DNA of 64,000 nt, taken from assembly GCF_050920415.1 (NCBI RefSeq), contig NZ_CP169309.1; one strand, 5' to 3'. Both the position numbers and the translations under genes were made by a program. Below the pieces are notes generated by a model. That model saw nothing but the letters and a program-made list of their open reading frames with translations, was not told the origin of the DNA and ran no database searches. Source of the DNA: Escherichia coli (GTDB lineage Bacteria > Pseudomonadota > Gammaproteobacteria > Enterobacterales > Enterobacteriaceae). Position 1 is the first letter of the stretch. Each line of letters starts with the position of its first letter. Shown in pieces: positions 24,330 to 42,625 of the stretch.

Positions 24330-24376
24330 TTTTTACCTGAGGGGGAGTTTATCCCCCTTAATAATCAGGAGTTTTT

Positions 24377-25417
24377 ATGAAATCAGTGGTGAATGATACT
24401 GATGGTATCGTACGCGTTGCCCAACGAGTCATTCCTGAAATTAAACATCAGGATGAGGTGCGGGTAAAAATTGCCAGCTCGGGATTATGTGGTTCCGATT
24501 TACCCAGAATTTTTAAAAATGGTGCACATTATTATCCAATAACGTTAGGCCATGAATTTAGCGGCTATATTGATGCTGTGGGATCCGGTGTTGATGATTT
24601 ACATCCTGGCGATGCGGTTGCCTGTGTGCCGTTATTACCCTGTTTTACTTGTCCAGAGTGTCTGAAAGGGTTTTATTCCCAGTGCGCAAAATATGATTTT
24701 ATTGGCTCACGGCGGGATGGTGGGTTTGCCGAATATATTGTCGTTAAGCGGAAAAATGTCTTTGCTCTACCTGCGCATATGCCTATTGAGGATGGGGCTT
24801 TTATTGAACCGATTACCGTTGGCCTGCATGCTTTCCATTTAGCGCAAGGTTGTGAGAATAAAAACGTTATTATTATTGGTGCCGGAACCATTGGCCTGCT
24901 GGCCATTCAGTGCGCTGTCGCGCTGGGAGCAAAGAGTGTGACGGCTATCGACATTAGCTCAGAAAAACTGGCACTGGCAAAATCTTTCGGTGCGATGCAA
25001 ACATTTAACAGCCTTGAAATGAGCGCGCCGCAAATGCAGGGCGTTTTACGCGAGCTGCGCTTTAATCAGCTTATCCTCGAGACGGCTGGCGTCCCGCAAA
25101 CCGTCGAACTGGCGGTAGAGATTGCCGGGCCTCATGCCCAGCTGGCGCTGGTGGGCACGTTGCATCAGGATCTGCATATAACATCGACAACGTTTGGCAA
25201 AATATTACGTAAAGAGCTGACGGTTATCGGCAGTTGGATGAACTACTCCAGCCCTTGGCCGGGGCAGGAGTGGGAAACGGCGAGCCGGTTGCTGACAGAA
25301 CGTAAGTTAAGCCTGGAGCCATTAATCGCTCACCGTGGAAGCTTTGAAAGCTTCGCCCAGGCGGTGCGTGACATCGCTCGTAATGCTATGCCGGGCAAAG
25401 TGTTGCTTATTCCCTGA
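24377..25417 (+). CDS. gatD: Galactitol-1-phosphate 5-dehydrogenase (Zn-dependent MDR)
   Basis: 346 aa; Zn-ADH motifs (GHEFSG, CxxC cluster) and Rossmann GAGTIG. Confidence 0.92.
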   Translation: MKSVVNDTDGIVRVAQRVIPEIKHQDEVRVKIASSGLCGSDLPRIFKNGAHYYPITLGHEFSGYIDAVGSGVDDLHPGDAVACVPLLPCFTCPECLKGFYSQCAKYDFIGSRRDGGFAEYIVVKRKNVFALPAHMPIEDGAFIEPITVGLHAFHLAQGCENKNVIIIGAGTIGLLAIQCAVALGAKSVTAIDISSEKLALAKSFGAMQTFNSLEMSAPQMQGVLRELRFNQLILETAGVPQTVELAVEIAGPHAQLALVGTLHQDLHITSTTFGKILRKELTVIGSWMNYSSPWPGQEWETASRLLTERKLSLEPLIAHRGSFESFAQAVRDIARNAMPGKVLLIP

Positions 25418-25516: not shown

Positions 25517-26296
25517 ATGACGATGAATTCATTCGAGCGAAGGAATAAGATCATCCAATTAGTGAATGAACAGGGAACCGTGCTTGTTCAGGATCTGGCG
25601 GGAGTATTTGCTGCCTCGGAAGCGACAATCCGTGCCGATTTGCGCTTTCTCGAACAAAAAGGCGTGGTTACGCGCTTTCATGGCGGTGCGGCGAAAATAA
25701 TGTCCGGTAATAGTGAAACCGAGACCCAGGAAGTCGGGTTTAAAGAGCGATTTCAGCTCGCCAGCGCGCCGAAAAACAGAATAGCGCAGGCGGCAGTCAA
25801 AATGATCCACGAAGGGATGACCGTTATTCTCGACAGCGGAAGTACGACAATGCTTATCGCCGAAGGTTTAATGACCGCCAAAAATATCACGGTGATTACC
25901 AACAGTCTCCCGGCGGCGTTTGCCCTTTCCGAAAATAAAGACATTACTCTGGTCGTCTGTGGTGGCACGGTCCGTCATAAAACGCGCTCGATGCATGGCT
26001 CCATTGCCGAGCGTTCATTGCAGGATATTAATGCCGATTTAATGTTTGTCGGTGCTGATGGTATTGATGCGGTTAATGGTATTACGACCTTTAATGAAGG
26101 TTATTCGATTAGCGGTGCGATGGTCACAGCCGCTAATAAAGTGATTGCCGTTCTCGATTCATCGAAATTTAACCGTCGCGGTTTTAATCAGGTACTGCCA
26201 ATCGAAAAAATTGATATTATTATTACTGATGATGCCGTGTCAGAGGTGGATAAACTGGCATTGCAGAAAACACGGGTGAAATTAATTACGGTGTAG
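25517..26296 (+). CDS. gatR: DeoR-family repressor of gat operon (intact)
   Basis: 259 aa continuous ORF (alternative start at 25523); N-terminal HTH plus DeoR C-terminal sugar-binding domain; no IS interruption. Confidence 0.88.
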   Translation: MTMNSFERRNKIIQLVNEQGTVLVQDLAGVFAASEATIRADLRFLEQKGVVTRFHGGAAKIMSGNSETETQEVGFKERFQLASAPKNRIAQAAVKMIHEGMTVILDSGSTTMLIAEGLMTAKNITVITNSLPAAFALSENKDITLVVCGGTVRHKTRSMHGSIAERSLQDINADLMFVGADGIDAVNGITTFNEGYSISGAMVTAANKVIAVLDSSKFNRRGFNQVLPIEKIDIIITDDAVSEVDKLALQKTRVKLITV

Positions 26297-26377
26297 CATT
26301 GTTCTTTATGCCGGATAAGGTGTGTACACCGAATCCGGCATCACTGATACTCCCTGAATTAAGAAAGGGAAATTTGA

Positions 26378-27277
26378 TTAACGCAATAATGGACAATCCG
26401 GTGGTAATCGACAGCGCAATGCTGCCGGAAGTATTTCAATATGGAAGTTTTGCCCACTCAACGGTTCGCCATCAAGATTAAAGGTAATTTCGTGTGGCGC
26501 TTGTATATCGAACCACGCCGAAGCACCTTCGATAATATTCGGGTTATCTTCGTCAGATTTTAAGGTTGATACGAGAGCCGGAAGAATTTCATCGCCGGTG
26601 AAAATGCGTAGTTGCAGCAAGCCGTCGTTAATTAATGCGTTCGGGCACAATTGCTGACCGCCACCTGCCTGACGGCCGTTACCAATACCAATGACTAGTG
26701 CGTCACCTTGCCAGTGAAAGTTTTCACCGCGGATTTCACAACGGTCCGGTTGCAGTGTATCCATGCGCATTAAGCCGTGAATGATGTAAGAGACGCCACC
26801 CAGCGCTGCTTTTAATTTTTCCGGCGTTTCTGTGGTAATACGTGTCCCAAACCCACCCGTTGCCATATTAATAAAACAGGTTTGTTTGTTGACCTGCGCC
26901 ATATCAATCGCAATAGCGTCACCAGCAATTGCTAGTTTCAGCGCCTTATCCAGTGCCTCAGGTATACCCACGCTGGTCGCGAAATCGTTCGCTGTACCTA
27001 GTGGCAAAATCCCCAGCGCGGGTATGTCATCGCCCTCACACTGAATCAGCGCCGAGGAAACTTCATTAATAGTGCCATCGCCACCACCGGCAATTACCGT
27101 TGCGACGCCCAGCTTCCGGGCCTCTTCTACAAATCGGGCGGCATCGCCTTTCTCCCAGGTGACCCGCACATGGATCGTCATTCCTTCCTCGCGCAACAGC
27201 ATAATTGCTTCGCGCAAGGGTTGATTGTCAGTACTTTTGCCGTTAAGAATCAGTAAGCTGGCGGGAAATTCTGCCAT
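26378..27277 (-). CDS. yegS: Lipid kinase YegS (DAGK catalytic domain)
   Basis: 299 aa; GGDGT motif. Confidence 0.9.
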
Positions 27278-27759
27278 AATCGTATGCCTTTATGATTGGT
27301 CTGTAGATAGTGTAGAGCAGAAAAGAAAAGGCGGAGTCAGAACAGGATGAAAATCGGAGGATAAAAAATCAGTTCAAGGATGGGGAATTCAGTGGTTACC
27401 AGTAAGGGGGGCAACGGTACACTCGGTTTTTATCGGCATAAATGATCACTGAAAGCACTTAAGCATTATTTTACTGTGGATTCAGCGTGGCAGCGAACAT
27501 TAACGGTAATCAGGGACAAACTTCAAAAGAGCATATGCATCATATTCAACAAAGCAATGGCATCCTCAATGTACGATTCCAATTATATTAAATAATTCCT
27601 ATGAGGTTATCTGTGATAGGCCTCCATGTCTGTATTTCCTACTTATGTAGGAAATTCTGCACAAAACATTTATTATAATCCTATTCAATAATGACAATGA
27701 TGTCATTATTATATTTCAACACTAGAGAGTGTCGTTGGTGTTTAATGGGGGAAGGTGAG

Positions 27760-28077
27760 ATGAAAAAGACAGCTGCTATATCATTAATTAGTGTTTTTCT
27801 TATGTCTGGTTGTGCTGTGCATAATGATGAGACAAGTATCGGTAAATTCGGTCTTGCCTATAAAAGTAATATCCAGCGTAAACTCGATAACCAATACTAC
27901 ACTGAAGCCGAAGCATCTTTAGCCAGGGGCAGAATATCTGGTGCGGAAAATATAGTGAAAAATGATGCAGCTAATTTCTGTGTTACTCAGGGCAAAAAAA
28001 TGCAGATAGTTAACCTGAAGACTGAAGGGGCAGGATTACATGGCGTCGCGCGTCTGACATTCAAATGTGGAGAGTGA
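27760..28077 (+). CDS. yegR: Small lipoprotein YegR
   Basis: Internal start MKKTAAISLISVFLMSGCAV (lipobox) within ORF 27691..28077 gives 105 aa. Confidence 0.75.
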   Translation: MKKTAAISLISVFLMSGCAVHNDETSIGKFGLAYKSNIQRKLDNQYYTEAEASLARGRISGAENIVKNDAANFCVTQGKKMQIVNLKTEGAGLHGVARLTFKCGE

Positions 28078-28407
28078 GAATAGATTCAAGACTACCATGG
28101 ACACATCCATTTTTATCTCTGATAAGGTATTCTTCAACACCATTATTGAATGTGAGTAATAATGACAAGCAGATAGATGAAACTACAGCAGAATTTTTAT
28201 TTTATGCGGCTATCAGAAAATGATGGCATAAATATTCCTATGCTTTAGCTTCATTTTTTGTAAGCGTCAAACATGCGCGTTCTGGGTGTGCGTAGCCGGA
28301 CCCTGTGCGAGCACGATGCCGTTAAGTGAAAGGCATCGTGCTATGAAGGGGGATTCTATCGATGTGGTCAATGGAAGACGGTCACCTGGGATCAATCCGT
28401 CTCTATG

Positions 28408-28494
28408 GTTTATGCATAAAAAATAAGCCCGTGTAAGGGAGATTACACAGGCTAAGGAGGTGGTTCCTGGTACAGCTAGCATTTTATGGGTTAT
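28408..28494 (-). ncRNA. cyaR: CRP-dependent Hfq-binding sRNA CyaR (RyeE)
   Basis: Minus strand reads GCTGAAAAACATAACCCATAAAATGCTAGCTGTACCAGGAACCACCTCCTTAGCCTGTGTAATCTCCCTTACACGGGCTTATTTTTT; matches CyaR as I recall it, including the terminator hairpin and U-tail. Confidence 0.88.
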
Positions 28495-28588
28495 GTTTTT
28501 CAGCGAAACGGATGATAACCTTAATAAATGCAGCTGTATGTGATCGGTTTCTAAGAATTTTCCATCCGGGAAAAATAATCGAAATTAA

Positions 28589-29950
28589 TCACTTACCGTG
28601 GGGGTTACGCGTGGTTTCCCCGGAGAAATTTCGCATCAGCAGCGCGTAATTTAGCTCAAGATCCTGCGGGACCGGGATCCACACAGTATAACCATCGCCA
28701 GGTGCGACCGGCATTGCTTCGCCTTTGGCGTTTTCCATATGCTCAAGGGTAAAGTTAATGTTCCCTTGCGGCGTCATCAGCTCAAGGCTGTCGCCAACGG
28801 AGAATTTATTTTTCACCGCTACCGCCGCGAGGTCGCCCTTGCGCTCACCGGTAAACTCACCAACAAACTGCTGGCGGTCAGAAACTGAATAACCGTATTC
28901 GTAGTTCTGATAATCGTCGTGAGTATGACGACGCAGGAAACCTTCGGTATAGCCACGATGCGCCAGACCTTCCAGAGTTTCCAGCAGGCTGGTATCGAAT
29001 GGTTTTCCCGCAGCTGCGTCATCGATAGCTTTACGGTAAACCTGCGCGGTGCGTGCGCAATAGTAGAAAGATTTTGTACGACCTTCGATTTTCAGCGAAT
29101 GCACGCCCATTTTGGTCAGGCGTTCAACGTGGGCGATAGCGCGCAGATCTTTCGAGTTCATGATGTAAGTGCCGTGCTCATCTTCAAACGCGGTCATATA
29201 CTCGCCCGGACGCTGAGCTTCTTCGATCATAAACACTTTGTCGGTTGGCGCGCCGATACCCAGCGTCGGCTCAACATTTTGCACCGGAATCGGCTCGTAC
29301 TTGTGCACGATGTTGCCAACGTCATCTTCTTTCCCTTCCTGGACGTTGTACTCCCAGCGGCAGGCGTTGGTGCAGGTGCCCTGGTTCGGGTCGCGCTTGT
29401 TGATATAGCCAGAGAGCAGGCAGCGACCGGAGTAGGCCATGCACAGCGCGCCGTGAACGAAGATCTCTACCTCCATATCCGGCACCTGATTGCGGATCTC
29501 TTCAATCTCTTCCAGCGACAGCTCGCGAGAGAGGATCACGCGGGTCAGGCCCATTTGCTGCCAGAATTTCACCGTCGCCCAGTTCACGGCGTTAGCCTGT
29601 ACCGAGAGATGGATCGGCATTTCAGGGAAGTGCTCACGCACCAGCATAATCAGCCCTGGATCGGACATTATTAGCGCATCCGGCCCCATTTCCACCACCG
29701 GTTTCAGGTCACGGATAAAGGTTTTCAGCTTGGCGTTGTGCGGTGCAATGTTGACCACAACATAAAACTTTTTCCCCAGCGCGTGGGCTTCATTAATGCC
29801 GAGCTGAAGATTTTCGTGGTTGAATTCGTTGTTGCGCACACGCAGGGAGTAACGCGGCTGGCCCGCATAAACAGCATCTGCGCCATAAGCGAAAGCGTAA
29901 CGCATATTTTTCAGCGTTCCCGCCGGGGAAAGGAGTTCCGGTTTAAACAT
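28589..29950 (-). CDS. yegQ: U32-family peptidase-like protein (tRNA U34 hydroxylation factor TrhP/YegQ)
   Basis: 453 aa ORF; U32 family Cys-containing core. Confidence 0.88.
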   Translation of the reverse strand: MFKPELLSPAGTLKNMRYAFAYGADAVYAGQPRYSLRVRNNEFNHENLQLGINEAHALGKKFYVVVNIAPHNAKLKTFIRDLKPVVEMGPDALIMSDPGLIMLVREHFPEMPIHLSVQANAVNWATVKFWQQMGLTRVILSRELSLEEIEEIRNQVPDMEVEIFVHGALCMAYSGRCLLSGYINKRDPNQGTCTNACRWEYNVQEGKEDDVGNIVHKYEPIPVQNVEPTLGIGAPTDKVFMIEEAQRPGEYMTAFEDEHGTYIMNSKDLRAIAHVERLTKMGVHSLKIEGRTKSFYYCARTAQVYRKAIDDAAAGKPFDTSLLETLEGLAHRGYTEGFLRRHTHDDYQNYEYGYSVSDRQQFVGEFTGERKGDLAAVAVKNKFSVGDSLELMTPQGNINFTLEHMENAKGEAMPVAPGDGYTVWIPVPQDLELNYALLMRNFSGETTRNPHGK

Positions 29951-30429: not shown

Positions 30430-30608
30430 AATGACTCCTTGATTGAAATTGCGTATCGAAAACAGCATCTAAAAGGACTGTTTGCCGATTAAAGTATGAG
30501 CGATTTTCAGGTGCTTGCCAGGGCGGAGAGATAATGTCAGATAGCCGAAAATGCGCGGGATAATGCTGCCGGATGCGGCGTGAATGCCTTCTCCGGCAGG
30601 TAAAAATG

Positions 30609-31331
30609 TTAAACGATGCGGCAGGCGTCGGCTTCCCAGCGATAACCGACACCGTAGACGGCGCGGATAAAAGACTGCTCTTCGTCCAGAGCTTCCAGCT
30701 TGCGACGCAGGTTTTTAATGTGGCTGTCGATGGTGCGGTCAGTTACTACGCGGTAGTCGTCATAAAGATGATTGAGCAATTGCTCGCGGGAGAACACTTT
30801 TCCTGGTTCATGAGAGAGTGTTTTCAGCAGACGAAATTCCGCAGGCGTCAGGTCAAGCATTTTACCGCGCCATGAAGCCTGAAAACGACCTTCGTCGATA
30901 ATCAACGGGCTTTCAGCATCCTGTTGCTGCAACTCACGCTGCGGTTTGCAACGGCGCAAAATGGTTTTGACGCGTGCTACCACTTCCCGTGGGCTGTACG
31001 GCTTGCAGATATAATCATCTGCGCCAATCTCTAGCCCGAGCAGGCGGTCGATCTCTTCGATTTTTGCTGTCACCATCACGATCGGAATGTCAGAAAAACG
31101 ACGAATCTCCCGACACAACGTCAGGCCATCGGTGCCAGGGAGCATCAGATCCAACAGGATCAGATCCGGTGGTGTCTGGCGCACATATGGCAGTACCTGA
31201 TCGCCGTGGCTGATAAGCGTCGGCGCATAGCTCGCAGCACGCAGATAATCAATAAGCAACTGCCCCAGCTTCGGTTCATCTTCCACGATCAAAATACGTG
31301 GCGTGTTTTCGTCGATTGGTAACTCGGTCAT
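30609..31331 (-). CDS. baeR: Envelope-stress response regulator (OmpR family)
   Basis: 240 aa; receiver domain plus winged-helix. Confidence 0.93.
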
Positions 31332-32731
31332 ACTTCTCTCTGTAAATCCCGTTCCAGCGGTAACTCTACTGTAATGCTTACCCCGCCAAAAGGCGAATGA
31401 GCGGCAACAATGCGACCATTATGTGCTTCAACAATGTTAAGACAAATAGCCAGCCCCAGGCCGGAACCGCCGCTGGCACGGTTGCGGGAACCTTCGGTGC
31501 GATAAAAACGCTCAAACAATTTTTGCAGTTGATCGTCACTAACGCCCGGTGCACTGTCGGCAAAGGTCAGGCGCACCGTTTTGTCATGTTGCTCGGCAGA
31601 GATATGCAGGCTGCCGCCGCTGTCGGTATAGCGCAGGCTGTTTTCCAGTAAGTTATTGAACAACTGCATTAAACGATCGCGATCGCCAAATACGGTAATG
31701 CTGTCTGGTAGGGAAAATTGCAGTTTCAGCCCGCGGCTGGCGAAACGCTCACGAAATGCGCCACCCGCGACTTCCAGTAGCGGGATCAGATCCACCGACG
31801 ATTTCTGGTAGGCGAGAGCGCCTTCATCAGACATCGACAATTGATGAAGATCATCCACCAGTTTGGTCAGTGTACCGACCTCTGCCTGTAAAGAAGCCAC
31901 CGTCTCCGGCGTGAATTTACGCACGCCATCCTGAATAGCTTCCAGTTCGCCGCGCAGTACCGCTAAAGGCGTGCGCAGCTCGTGGGAGATATCGGCCATA
32001 AAATCGCGGCGCATCTGTTGGTTTTTCTCCAGCGTGCTGGCGAGCTGGTTGAAGTCTTGCGCCAGTTTGCCCAATTCATCTTCGCTGGTGGGCGTCACGC
32101 GAGTAGTGAAATCGCCCGCTGCCAGTTTGTGTGTACCGTCCACCAGTCGTTTGACCGGAGCCAGCAAACCGCGCGCCAGTGGGAATGTCGCCAGCGCCGC
32201 TAACAAGGTAGATAAAGCGACAATCAGCCAACTGGTTTGCCTCTGTTGTCTGTCAAAATTGATGTCGGTATTGCGGGTCAGTCGTTCAACAGGGGAGGCG
32301 ATCACCGCACCCACTTCCGCCCCATTGACCATAATGGGCCGCCGTGTGCCGTCTGGTGGAATCGGTGCTCGCGGGCCAACCAGCACTTTGTTGTTTTGAT
32401 CAACCACCCAGAATTGCGTGCGCCAACCGTGTGGCGGCATACCGGGGCCGGGCTTATCTTCGTTGTTATCATGCTCCAGCGAACGTAGGATCTGAAATAC
32501 AAAGCGATCGTTATTACGCAGGAAGCGCCAGTTCCCGTGCTGGGCGTACTGCTCACCAAGCGCATCGCCGAGCATTTGCAGCCGTTGTTCATTACCATGC
32601 TTGATGTAATCGATAAAGCCGCGCTCAAAACTGATACGTACCGCCCAGTGCATCGTGATCAATAAGACAATGCAGGTGGCGAAAATCGCCAGAAACAGTT
32701 TGCCGGTAATACCGGGTCGCCAGAACTTCAT
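31328..32731 (-). CDS. baeS: Envelope-stress sensor histidine kinase
   Basis: 467 aa; H-box [12 protein letters not shown], ATPase G-boxes; 4 bp overlaps with mdtD and baeR. Confidence 0.93.
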
Positions 32732-41821: not shown

Positions 41822-41962
41822 AACGGGAAAGCCCCTCCCGAGGAAGGGGCCTTAAATAAGGAAAGGGTCATGATGAAGTGGATCATCATCGTGGTGCTCT
41901 TAGTCGTTAGCTACCCAGCTTACTAAGACTACCAGGGCGGGGGAAACCCCGCTCTACCCTCA
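41822..41962 (-). ncRNA. Sib-family antisense sRNA (antitoxin), copy 1; ends approximate
   Basis: Minus strand has TTGACA (41992-41997), 17 bp spacer and a weak -10 (TACTTT); transcript would fully overlap the ibs ORF and end at a GC-rich hairpin + U tract near 41822. Confidence 0.6.
41869..41925 (+). CDS. Ibs-family type I toxin, 18 aa hydrophobic peptide (MMKWIIIVVLLVVSYPAY)
   Basis: ATGATGAAG start 8 nt after AAAGGG RBS; hydrophobic 18-residue peptide; below the ORF-track size cutoff. Confidence 0.8.
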
Positions 41963-42150: not shown

Positions 42151-42291
42151 ACGGGAAAGCCCCTCCCGAGGAAGGGGCCTTAAATAAGGAAAGGGTCATG
42201 ATGAAGATACTCATCATCGTGGTGCTCTTAGTCATTAGCTTACCGGCTTACTAAGACTACCAGGGCGGGGGAAACCCCGCTCTACCCTCAC
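42151..42291 (-). ncRNA. Sib-family antisense sRNA, copy 2; ends approximate
   Basis: Same promoter and terminator elements as copy 1, shifted by the repeat period. Confidence 0.6.
42198..42254 (+). CDS. Ibs-family type I toxin, 18 aa (MMKILIIVVLLVISLPAY)
   Basis: Same architecture as copy 1, 329 bp downstream. Confidence 0.8.
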   Translation: MMKILIIVVLLVISLPAY

Positions 42292-42478: not shown

Positions 42479-42625
42479 ACGGGAAAGCCCCTCCCGAGGA
42501 AGGGGCCTTAAATAAGGAAAGGGTCATGATGAAGCTACTCATCATCGTGGTGCTCTTAGTTATTAGCTGGCCAGCTTACTAAGACTACCAGGGCGGGGGA
42601 AACCCCGCTCTACCCTCACTCCTGA
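42479..42625 (-). ncRNA. Sib-family antisense sRNA, copy 3; ends approximate, promoter region diverged
   Basis: TTGACA -35 retained, but the spacer and -10 differ from copies 1 and 2. Confidence 0.5.
42526..42582 (+). CDS. Ibs-family type I toxin, 18 aa (MMKLLIIVVLLVISWPAY)
   Basis: Same architecture; third copy. Confidence 0.8.
   Translation: MMKLLIIVVLLVISWPAY

Follow-up and report, generated by a model that had tools for sequence, protein, structure and literature searches.

During integration of phage P2, Int dimers bind the arm sites and the core, IHF bends the DNA, attP synapses with the 27-bp attB, and strands are exchanged within the core; excision is directed by Cox. Elements that integrate at the 3' ends of RNA genes include phage 186 in tRNA-Ile, Fels-2 and SopE-phi in ssrA, and P2-type elements at rybB (PMC3448106; PMC3032704, Table 2). 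At such tRNA, tmRNA and sRNA targets, the attP core copies the 3' end of the RNA gene, so that the gene survives insertion, and the same holds at the small RNA gene cyaR. The cyaR site differs from these in that its target is the terminator of an Hfq-dependent sRNA, not a tRNA-like structure, and in that the shared core is short (27 bp). Table 2 of the E. coli W genome paper gives 'cyaR RNA' as a P2 insertion site, which is occupied in W and B (by Wphi2 and P2*B, respectively), carries 'ogr-D'' in K-12, and is empty in Crooks (PMC3032704). An unoccupied P2 site at cyaR is hence already known; it is both textbook and common. The site, locI, was originally defined in E. coli C (here ATCC 8739, or Crooks; NC_010468).

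Here we analyzed a 64,000-nt stretch of DNA from E. coli (the window), concentrating on positions 28078-28494, which run from the stop codon of yegR into cyaR. The window is ordinary chromosome (yehI ... gat operon, yegS, yegR, cyaR, yegQ, baeSR, mdtABCD ... wza-wcaB) and differs from the corresponding sequence of E. coli MFDS1022581 (NZ_CP169399.1) at 10 of 64,000 positions. Two observations concern other parts of it. The gatR gene (25523-26296), encoding the galactitol repressor of the DeoR family, is intact in the window and is split by IS3E in K-12. Between mdtA and yegL, there are three tandem ORFs for type I toxins of the Ibs family (41870-41926, 42198-42254 and 42526-42582), each of 18 aa, with a spacing of 328 bp.

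A first-pass annotation, made from the letters alone, had described the yegR-cyaR interval as an apparently vacant P2-type attachment site at the 3' end of cyaR, and this interpretation is supported. The 27-mer on which it was based, AAAAAATAAGCCCGTGTAAGGGAGATT, is present exactly as given and occurs once in the window, on the plus strand, at 28418-28444. The position assigned to it (28408-28434) was 10 bases too low, and apart from this coordinate error the overall observation is borne out. The sequence had been taken for the P2 att core, and indeed all 27 positions are identical to nucleotides 24356-24382 of the P2 genome (AF063097), which are labeled 'attP' and 'Int attP core'. Identity between the window and P2 continues for one base (T) beyond the core on the left, making 28 bp in all. 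A chance origin of the 27-mer is ruled out: it is unique in the window, it equals the annotated attP core, and none of 100 shuffles contained a match, even with three mismatches allowed. We conclude with high confidence that 28418-28444 represents the unoccupied primary attB (locI) of P2, lying within the terminator of the Crp-dependent sRNA gene cyaR; it is probably at the same time the attR end of an old, decayed P2-type insertion. The features on which this conclusion draws are collected in Table 1.

Table 1. Features of the vacant P2 attachment site and its surroundings (positions are those of the window).
Feature	Position	Strand	Basis
yegS, conserved host gene left of the island	26378..27277	-	
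Degenerate core copy (18/27), putative fossil attL core	27363..27389	+	In register with the intact E69 core
Putative fossil P' arm, with Cox-site region and arm-type repeats	27390..27494	+	blastn; Smith-Waterman
yegR, 105-aa predicted lipoprotein, only ORF in the putative att-bounded island	27760..28077	+	Annotated CDS
AT-rich segment, 171 bp, directly after yegR	28083..28253	.	In 931/5,426 genomes; absent from K-12 and E. coli C
Perfect 11-bp inverted repeat, 11-nt loop, no U-tract	28310..28342	.	Fold -28.4 kcal/mol, z = -6.6
Putative fossil P arm of P2-type attP, directly against the core	28359..28417	+	blastn; Smith-Waterman versus shuffles
P2-type attachment core (attB, 'locI'), unoccupied, 27 bp	28418..28444	+	Unique exact match; 27/27 versus AF063097; natural junctions at the edges
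cyaR (CyaR/RyeE small RNA), last 27 nt = core	28418..28506	-	RF00112; K-12 3' end mapping
CyaR intrinsic terminator hairpin, 11-bp stem, 6-nt loop	28426..28453	-	Terminator scan and fold
yegQ/trhP, conserved host gene flanking the site beyond cyaR	28589..29950	-	Annotation

The sRNA gene at this position is readily recognized. Rfam family RF00112 (CyaR/RyeE) matches the minus strand at 28421-28506 over the full model (positions 1-85 of 85), with 100.7 bits compared to a gathering score of 47, which places the RNA in the family. Transfer of the K-12 annotation puts the 3' end of cyaR at 28418, and hence the 27-mer corresponds to the last 27 nt of the gene. That the 27-mer overlaps the CyaR terminator, another element of the first-pass reading, agrees with both the terminator scan and the predicted fold. 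The stem is followed by a U-tract at 28416-28425; the core includes this tract and extends through the 3' stem half and the loop to take in 2 nt of the 5' stem half. All 89 nt of CyaR are base-identical in the window, K-12, E. coli C and the lysogen NR1441. Since the RNA is the same in the empty, lysogenic and K-12 states, integration must rebuild the sRNA 3' end or leave it intact, as had been anticipated for a lysogen at this site.

The distance from the end of yegR (28077) to the 3' end of cyaR is 340 bp, compared to a first estimate of ∼330 bp. Translated searches with P2 revealed no hidden fragments of ogr, D or int in this gap or elsewhere in the 64-kb window. When 27300-28460 was compared to the whole P2 genome by tblastx, the att region was the sole match and no P2 protein fragments were seen; when 22 P2 proteins were compared to the window by tblastn, matches were of chance level and confined to host genes. 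Homologs of ogr, D, int or other P2 proteins are thus absent both from the gap, in agreement with the claim that it holds no ogr-like or phage ORF, and from the rest of the window. K-12 had been described as carrying a cryptic P2 remnant at this locus, and in its annotation the interval between cyaR and yegR indeed holds a 629-bp cryptic prophage, PR-X, with ogrK and the pseudogene yegZ. Upon alignment to K-12, the 548-bp insert comprising the ogr gene and the D' fragment is missing from the window, and no similarity to Ogr or D is found elsewhere in it. The PR-X locus of K-12 is otherwise the same locus, where cyaR likewise ends in an intact core and the older yegR island is shared with the window. 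What K-12 alone has, and the window lacks, is a younger layer consisting of the first 18 nt of the core, D', ogrK, a fresh P arm, and the core. The term 'vacant' is therefore apt with respect to a recent prophage but not in the sense of pristine, because an older P2-type element appears to have left fossil P and P' arms in the flanks.

Natural lysogens delimit the site to the base. Homology between the window and natural attL junctions stops exactly at 28444, and homology to attR junctions starts at 28418. One phage record, ON470606, includes host flank (gatR - yegS - yegR - flank - core - int - C - cox) and is homologous to the window up to 28444. In strain NR1441, a complete P2-like prophage of 33,984 bp, measured from core to core, is integrated such that int adjoins yegR and ogr adjoins cyaR; its attL and attR cores match at 26/27 and 27/27 positions, respectively. 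These occupied sites have the same core, host flanks and CyaR as the window, but contain ∼34 kb of phage DNA (int...ogr) between two cores, whereas in the window there is one core, with no phage genes. Lysogens are known on both types of flank, the short one (NR1441-like) and the one containing the 171-bp segment (the host of ON470606).

Two further junctions came to light outside E. coli records. A 9.7-kb contig of a metagenome-assembled genome labeled Collinsella (JAIJJM010000051.1) ends in an E. coli-type P2 attR, with the ogr end, P arm, core and cyaR; this contig is almost certainly Enterobacteriaceae DNA mis-binned into the Collinsella assembly. In Kluyvera intermedia (NZ_JAKCNS010000008.1, 878-999), Kluyvera cyaR is fused to P2-like sequence comprising the ogr terminator, P arm and core, with 81% identity to P2 over 122 nt. 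As this is a genuine P2-like attR at the cyaR gene of K. intermedia, it follows that P2-type phages use the cyaR site outside Escherichia.

To see how common the vacant state is, we turned to the 5,426 complete E. coli genomes in RefSeq. A match to a 261-bp probe (flank, core and cyaR) was obtained in 5,423 of these and was contiguous in 4,573, a number that includes K-12-type stubs and, like all counts in this sample, is biased by the enrichment of RefSeq complete genomes for laboratory K-12 derivatives and clinical clones. The K-12 ogr-D' junction was found in 357 genomes (about 7%), leaving ∼4,216 (78%) that are empty. A true attL probe, extending from the flank across the core and P' arm to the 3' end of int, was fully covered in 813 genomes (15%). 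Hence, an empty cyaR/locI is the majority and commonest state in E. coli.

These frequencies bear on how the site came to be empty. A P2-like prophage may once have resided here and left by precise Int/Cox excision or core-core recombination, restoring attB. With ∼15% of genomes occupied, gain and loss would be frequent; precise excision leaves no scar; and the older fossil arms indicate repeated use of the cyaR site. However, the sequence would be the same for a cured site and a naive one, and the present state and function are equal either way. We regard such a history as a possibility, albeit an unlikely one.

Whatever its past, a vacant locI is the reading we favor, and its consequences can be sketched from established P2 biology and the annotation in AF063097. 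A P2-type tyrosine integrase, together with IHF, would carry out strand exchange inside the 27-bp core against the identical core of attP. P' and int would land on the yegR side, beside the existing fossil P arm, while ogr, the P arm and the core would land beside the body of cyaR, yielding a prophage whose int end adjoins yegR and whose ogr end adjoins cyaR. The terminator would be rebuilt from phage DNA, and CyaR would stay unchanged because the phage supplies the identical 27 bp. By this token, the strain should be amenable to lysogenization by P2 at this site. Receptor, immunity or defense systems could block P2 regardless of attB.

Comparison with E. coli C reveals the same chromosomal position, at the 3' end of cyaR, with the same neighbors (yegR - core/cyaR - yegQ); the site is likewise empty, without insert, and the core and cyaR are identical. 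Relative to E. coli C, the window has an additional 171 bp after yegR, 12 nt more of the P-arm remnant, ∼75 nt more of the P'-arm remnant, and one A fewer before the core. The island between the att-like ends measures 1,082 bp in the window versus 822 bp in E. coli C. On the B side, the flank of the window departs from that of E. coli C within 20 nt of the core, owing to the 12 extra nt and the missing A. It is conceivable that the 27-mer acts as a terminator only, its identity to P2 being without consequence in this strain, and that the site cannot be used because of the divergent flank on the B side or of other host factors. The differences from E. coli C do lie close to the core, the allele is rare (22/5,426 genomes), and no lysogen with exactly the window allele was identified in this analysis. 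Yet the core and B' side are identical to those of functional sites, lysogens exist on both the short and the 171-bp flank types, and P2 can also insert at secondary sites where only 17-20 of the 27 core positions are matched. We therefore consider an inert site extremely improbable.

The 59 nt directly to the left of the core resemble the P arm of P2 attP. In a blastn comparison, 28359-28444 aligned with P2 24293-24382 at 76.9% identity over 91 columns. With the core excluded, the Smith-Waterman score was 33, versus 15.0 ± 2.3 for dinucleotide shuffles, and 0 of 1000 shuffles reached 33. Outside the core, this segment is the counterpart of the part of P2 attP that is annotated with 'Int P arm' and IHF sites. 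It contains TCGATGTGGTCAATG, which is identical at 15/15 positions to the annotated P2 'Int P arm' site and holds the arm-type repeat; the repeat of this type within the P-arm remnant is TGTGGTCA, at 28363-28370. The arm-type consensus for P2 Int is tgTGGaCa (PMC3448106). The remnant is fuller in Escherichia sp. MOD1-EC7003 and 12 nt shorter in both E. coli C and K-12. Farther from the core, the inverted repeat at 28310-28342 sits where P2 has the ogr terminator and is kept in E. coli C and K-12. It was considered as an intrinsic terminator, but the terminator scan did not call it.

A second region of similarity lies on the other side of yegR. There, AAAAAATCAGTTCAAGGATGGGGAATT (27363-27389) matches the core at 18/27 positions and is in direct orientation with the intact core, ∼1,055 bp away; the chance of 17/27 or better at a fixed position is ∼9e-5. 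This copy is in register with the intact core of E. coli E69, which has on its left the same yegS-upstream sequence that is found at this point in the window. E. coli C, which shares both this left core (18/27) and the P-arm repeat with the window, carries the same derived substitutions in the left core, as does MOD1-EC7003 (21/27).

Adjoining the left core is a block similar to the P' arm. By blastn, 27362-27480 aligned with P2 24355-24476 (75.4% over 122 columns, E = 9e-16), and the Smith-Waterman score for the block was 87, versus 16.7 ± 2.2 for shuffles. Arm-type repeats lie within it at 27475 (TGTGGA) and at about 27485 (GCGTGGCA), and it shares 84% identity with the int-proximal arm of attP from P2-like prophages resident in 39 genomes. 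This similarity is detectable only with word-7 BLAST or a Smith-Waterman search. Word-11 BLAST of 27300-28100 against 50,697 phage records returned host-flank records only and did not report it.

The overall layout is thus yegS / degenerate core - P' remnant / ∼850 bp with yegR / P remnant - intact core / cyaR, with an island of 1,082 bp including yegR. Its two attP-homologous blocks are collinear and oriented as in a prophage, with P' following the left core and P preceding the right one. Judging from sequence, this is the geometry and orientation of attL ... attR. We consider it likely that yegR lies in an att-bounded fossil island. In such a scenario, an old P2-type insertion would have decayed to leave a left core (27363-27389), P' sequence up to ∼27494, yegR, P-arm sequence (28359-28417), and an intact core as attR. 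One old insertion is the simplest reading, because the degenerate left core has the same substitutions in every E. coli examined, and both arms appear to stem from a single ancient element. An att-bracketed fossil island around yegR finds no mention in the searchable literature, of which the original P2 att papers are not part.

Similarity of ∼75-77% has by itself no direction, which raises the possibility that DNA moved the other way. It is general knowledge that attP cores copying RNA-gene 3' ends are host-derived, and P2-type phages might likewise have taken up host DNA beside cyaR, for example by aberrant excision, with the host flank as donor and attP as recipient. Several facts argue against this. 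Conservation falls on sequences that belong to the phage itself, namely the arm-type repeats for Int and the Cox/IHF region of the P2 annotation (consensus in PMC3448106). The block resembling P' is 1 kb away from the intact core, beside a degenerate second core, an arrangement that matches attL...attR geometry and not a single host flank. Moreover, the bare-core sites of E. coli E69, K. ascorbata and K. cryocrescens lack both arms. We deem capture of host DNA very unlikely, and take a decayed insertion as the probable source of the arms in what follows.

The bare sites are worth describing in their own right. When one genome per species was scanned for the exact pattern, a core joined to cyaR turned up in only eight records: E69, MOD1-EC7003, five Kluyvera and the Collinsella-labeled contig. 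In E69, the region upstream of yegS joins the core directly, with no yegR and no arm-like flank. In K. ascorbata and K. cryocrescens, the core is present and, as in E69, no arm fossils adjoin it. The bare site of E69 may be ancestral or an excision product, and no site of this type was found among the 5,426 RefSeq complete E. coli genomes. A different arrangement was noted in E. coli FDAARGOS_1077 (NZ_CP068155.1, 1519-2272), where 754 bp without an annotated yegR separate yegS and yegQ, and a HAD hydrolase gene occupies the usual place of gatR. Here the island has been eroded further or rearranged.

Phage genes or gene fragments are not recognizable inside the island; yegR alone is present. 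Homologs in the YegR family (PF27694) are almost all from Escherichia/Shigella, and yegR is an Escherichia-restricted orphan gene. When YegR was compared to sequenced phages by tblastn, only host flanks were hit, and an NCBIfam search gave matches of signal-peptide level only. A PHROG match of yegR is probably due to carry-over at a prophage boundary, that is, host flank. Two distant homologs were found, one in an IS-rich island of an Enterobacter and the other at an unrelated chromosomal site. With its phage matches being host flank and its distant homologs lying in non-P2 contexts, the idea that yegR is a recognizable phage cargo gene is not supported. The homolog in Enterobacter sp. BIDMC 29 (KI973170.1, 8001-8318) is 52% identical and is located in an island rich in IS and Tn3 elements, beside an omptin gene and an MFS transporter gene, which indicates that the yegR family moves between genomes.

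Other parts of the island vary among strains. The AT-rich segment at 28083-28253, carried by ST131 and NC101-type strains among others, has no terminal repeats and shows no phage similarity except to host flank within a phage record. The long form of the P' remnant occurs in 22 of the 5,426 genomes, and typical alleles have lost ∼75 nt of the P' remnant, 12 nt of the P remnant, and the 171-bp segment. Ordered by decay, MOD1-EC7003 is the fullest, followed by the window and then E. coli C. Among the complete E. coli genomes compared, the window allele is thus a rare, divergent and least-eroded version. The yegS-yegR patch (26000-28500) is 87-94% identical to E. coli C, versus 97-99% in the flanks. 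A second divergent patch (∼90%) was noted in baeR/baeS (30500-32000). Both patches look like recombination imports from a divergent lineage.

Could the older remnants influence how the site is used today? In the strongest form of this idea, locI is the surviving attR of an ancient P2-type element, the ∼1-kb husk of this element donated yegR, and the retained arm repeat and P-arm spacing shape the preference for locI, or its behavior, relative to bare cores such as those of E69 and Kluyvera. We rate this whole proposal as rather improbable, and a contribution of the retained arm-type site to P2 site preference is speculative; like the fossil island, it finds no mention in the searchable literature.

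The vacancy matters little by itself. It is of use for annotation, in that an empty cyaR/locI is the norm and K-12 the exception, and it is relevant to attempts at lysogenizing the lineage with phages of the P2 type or with integration vectors derived from P2. Successive P2-type elements would have used the same 27-bp sRNA terminator, and two layers of them can be made out in K-12 and one in the window. Within the older husk, yegR, an orphan gene found throughout the species, is a possible case of a host gene inherited from a decayed prophage, which is of modest evolutionary interest.
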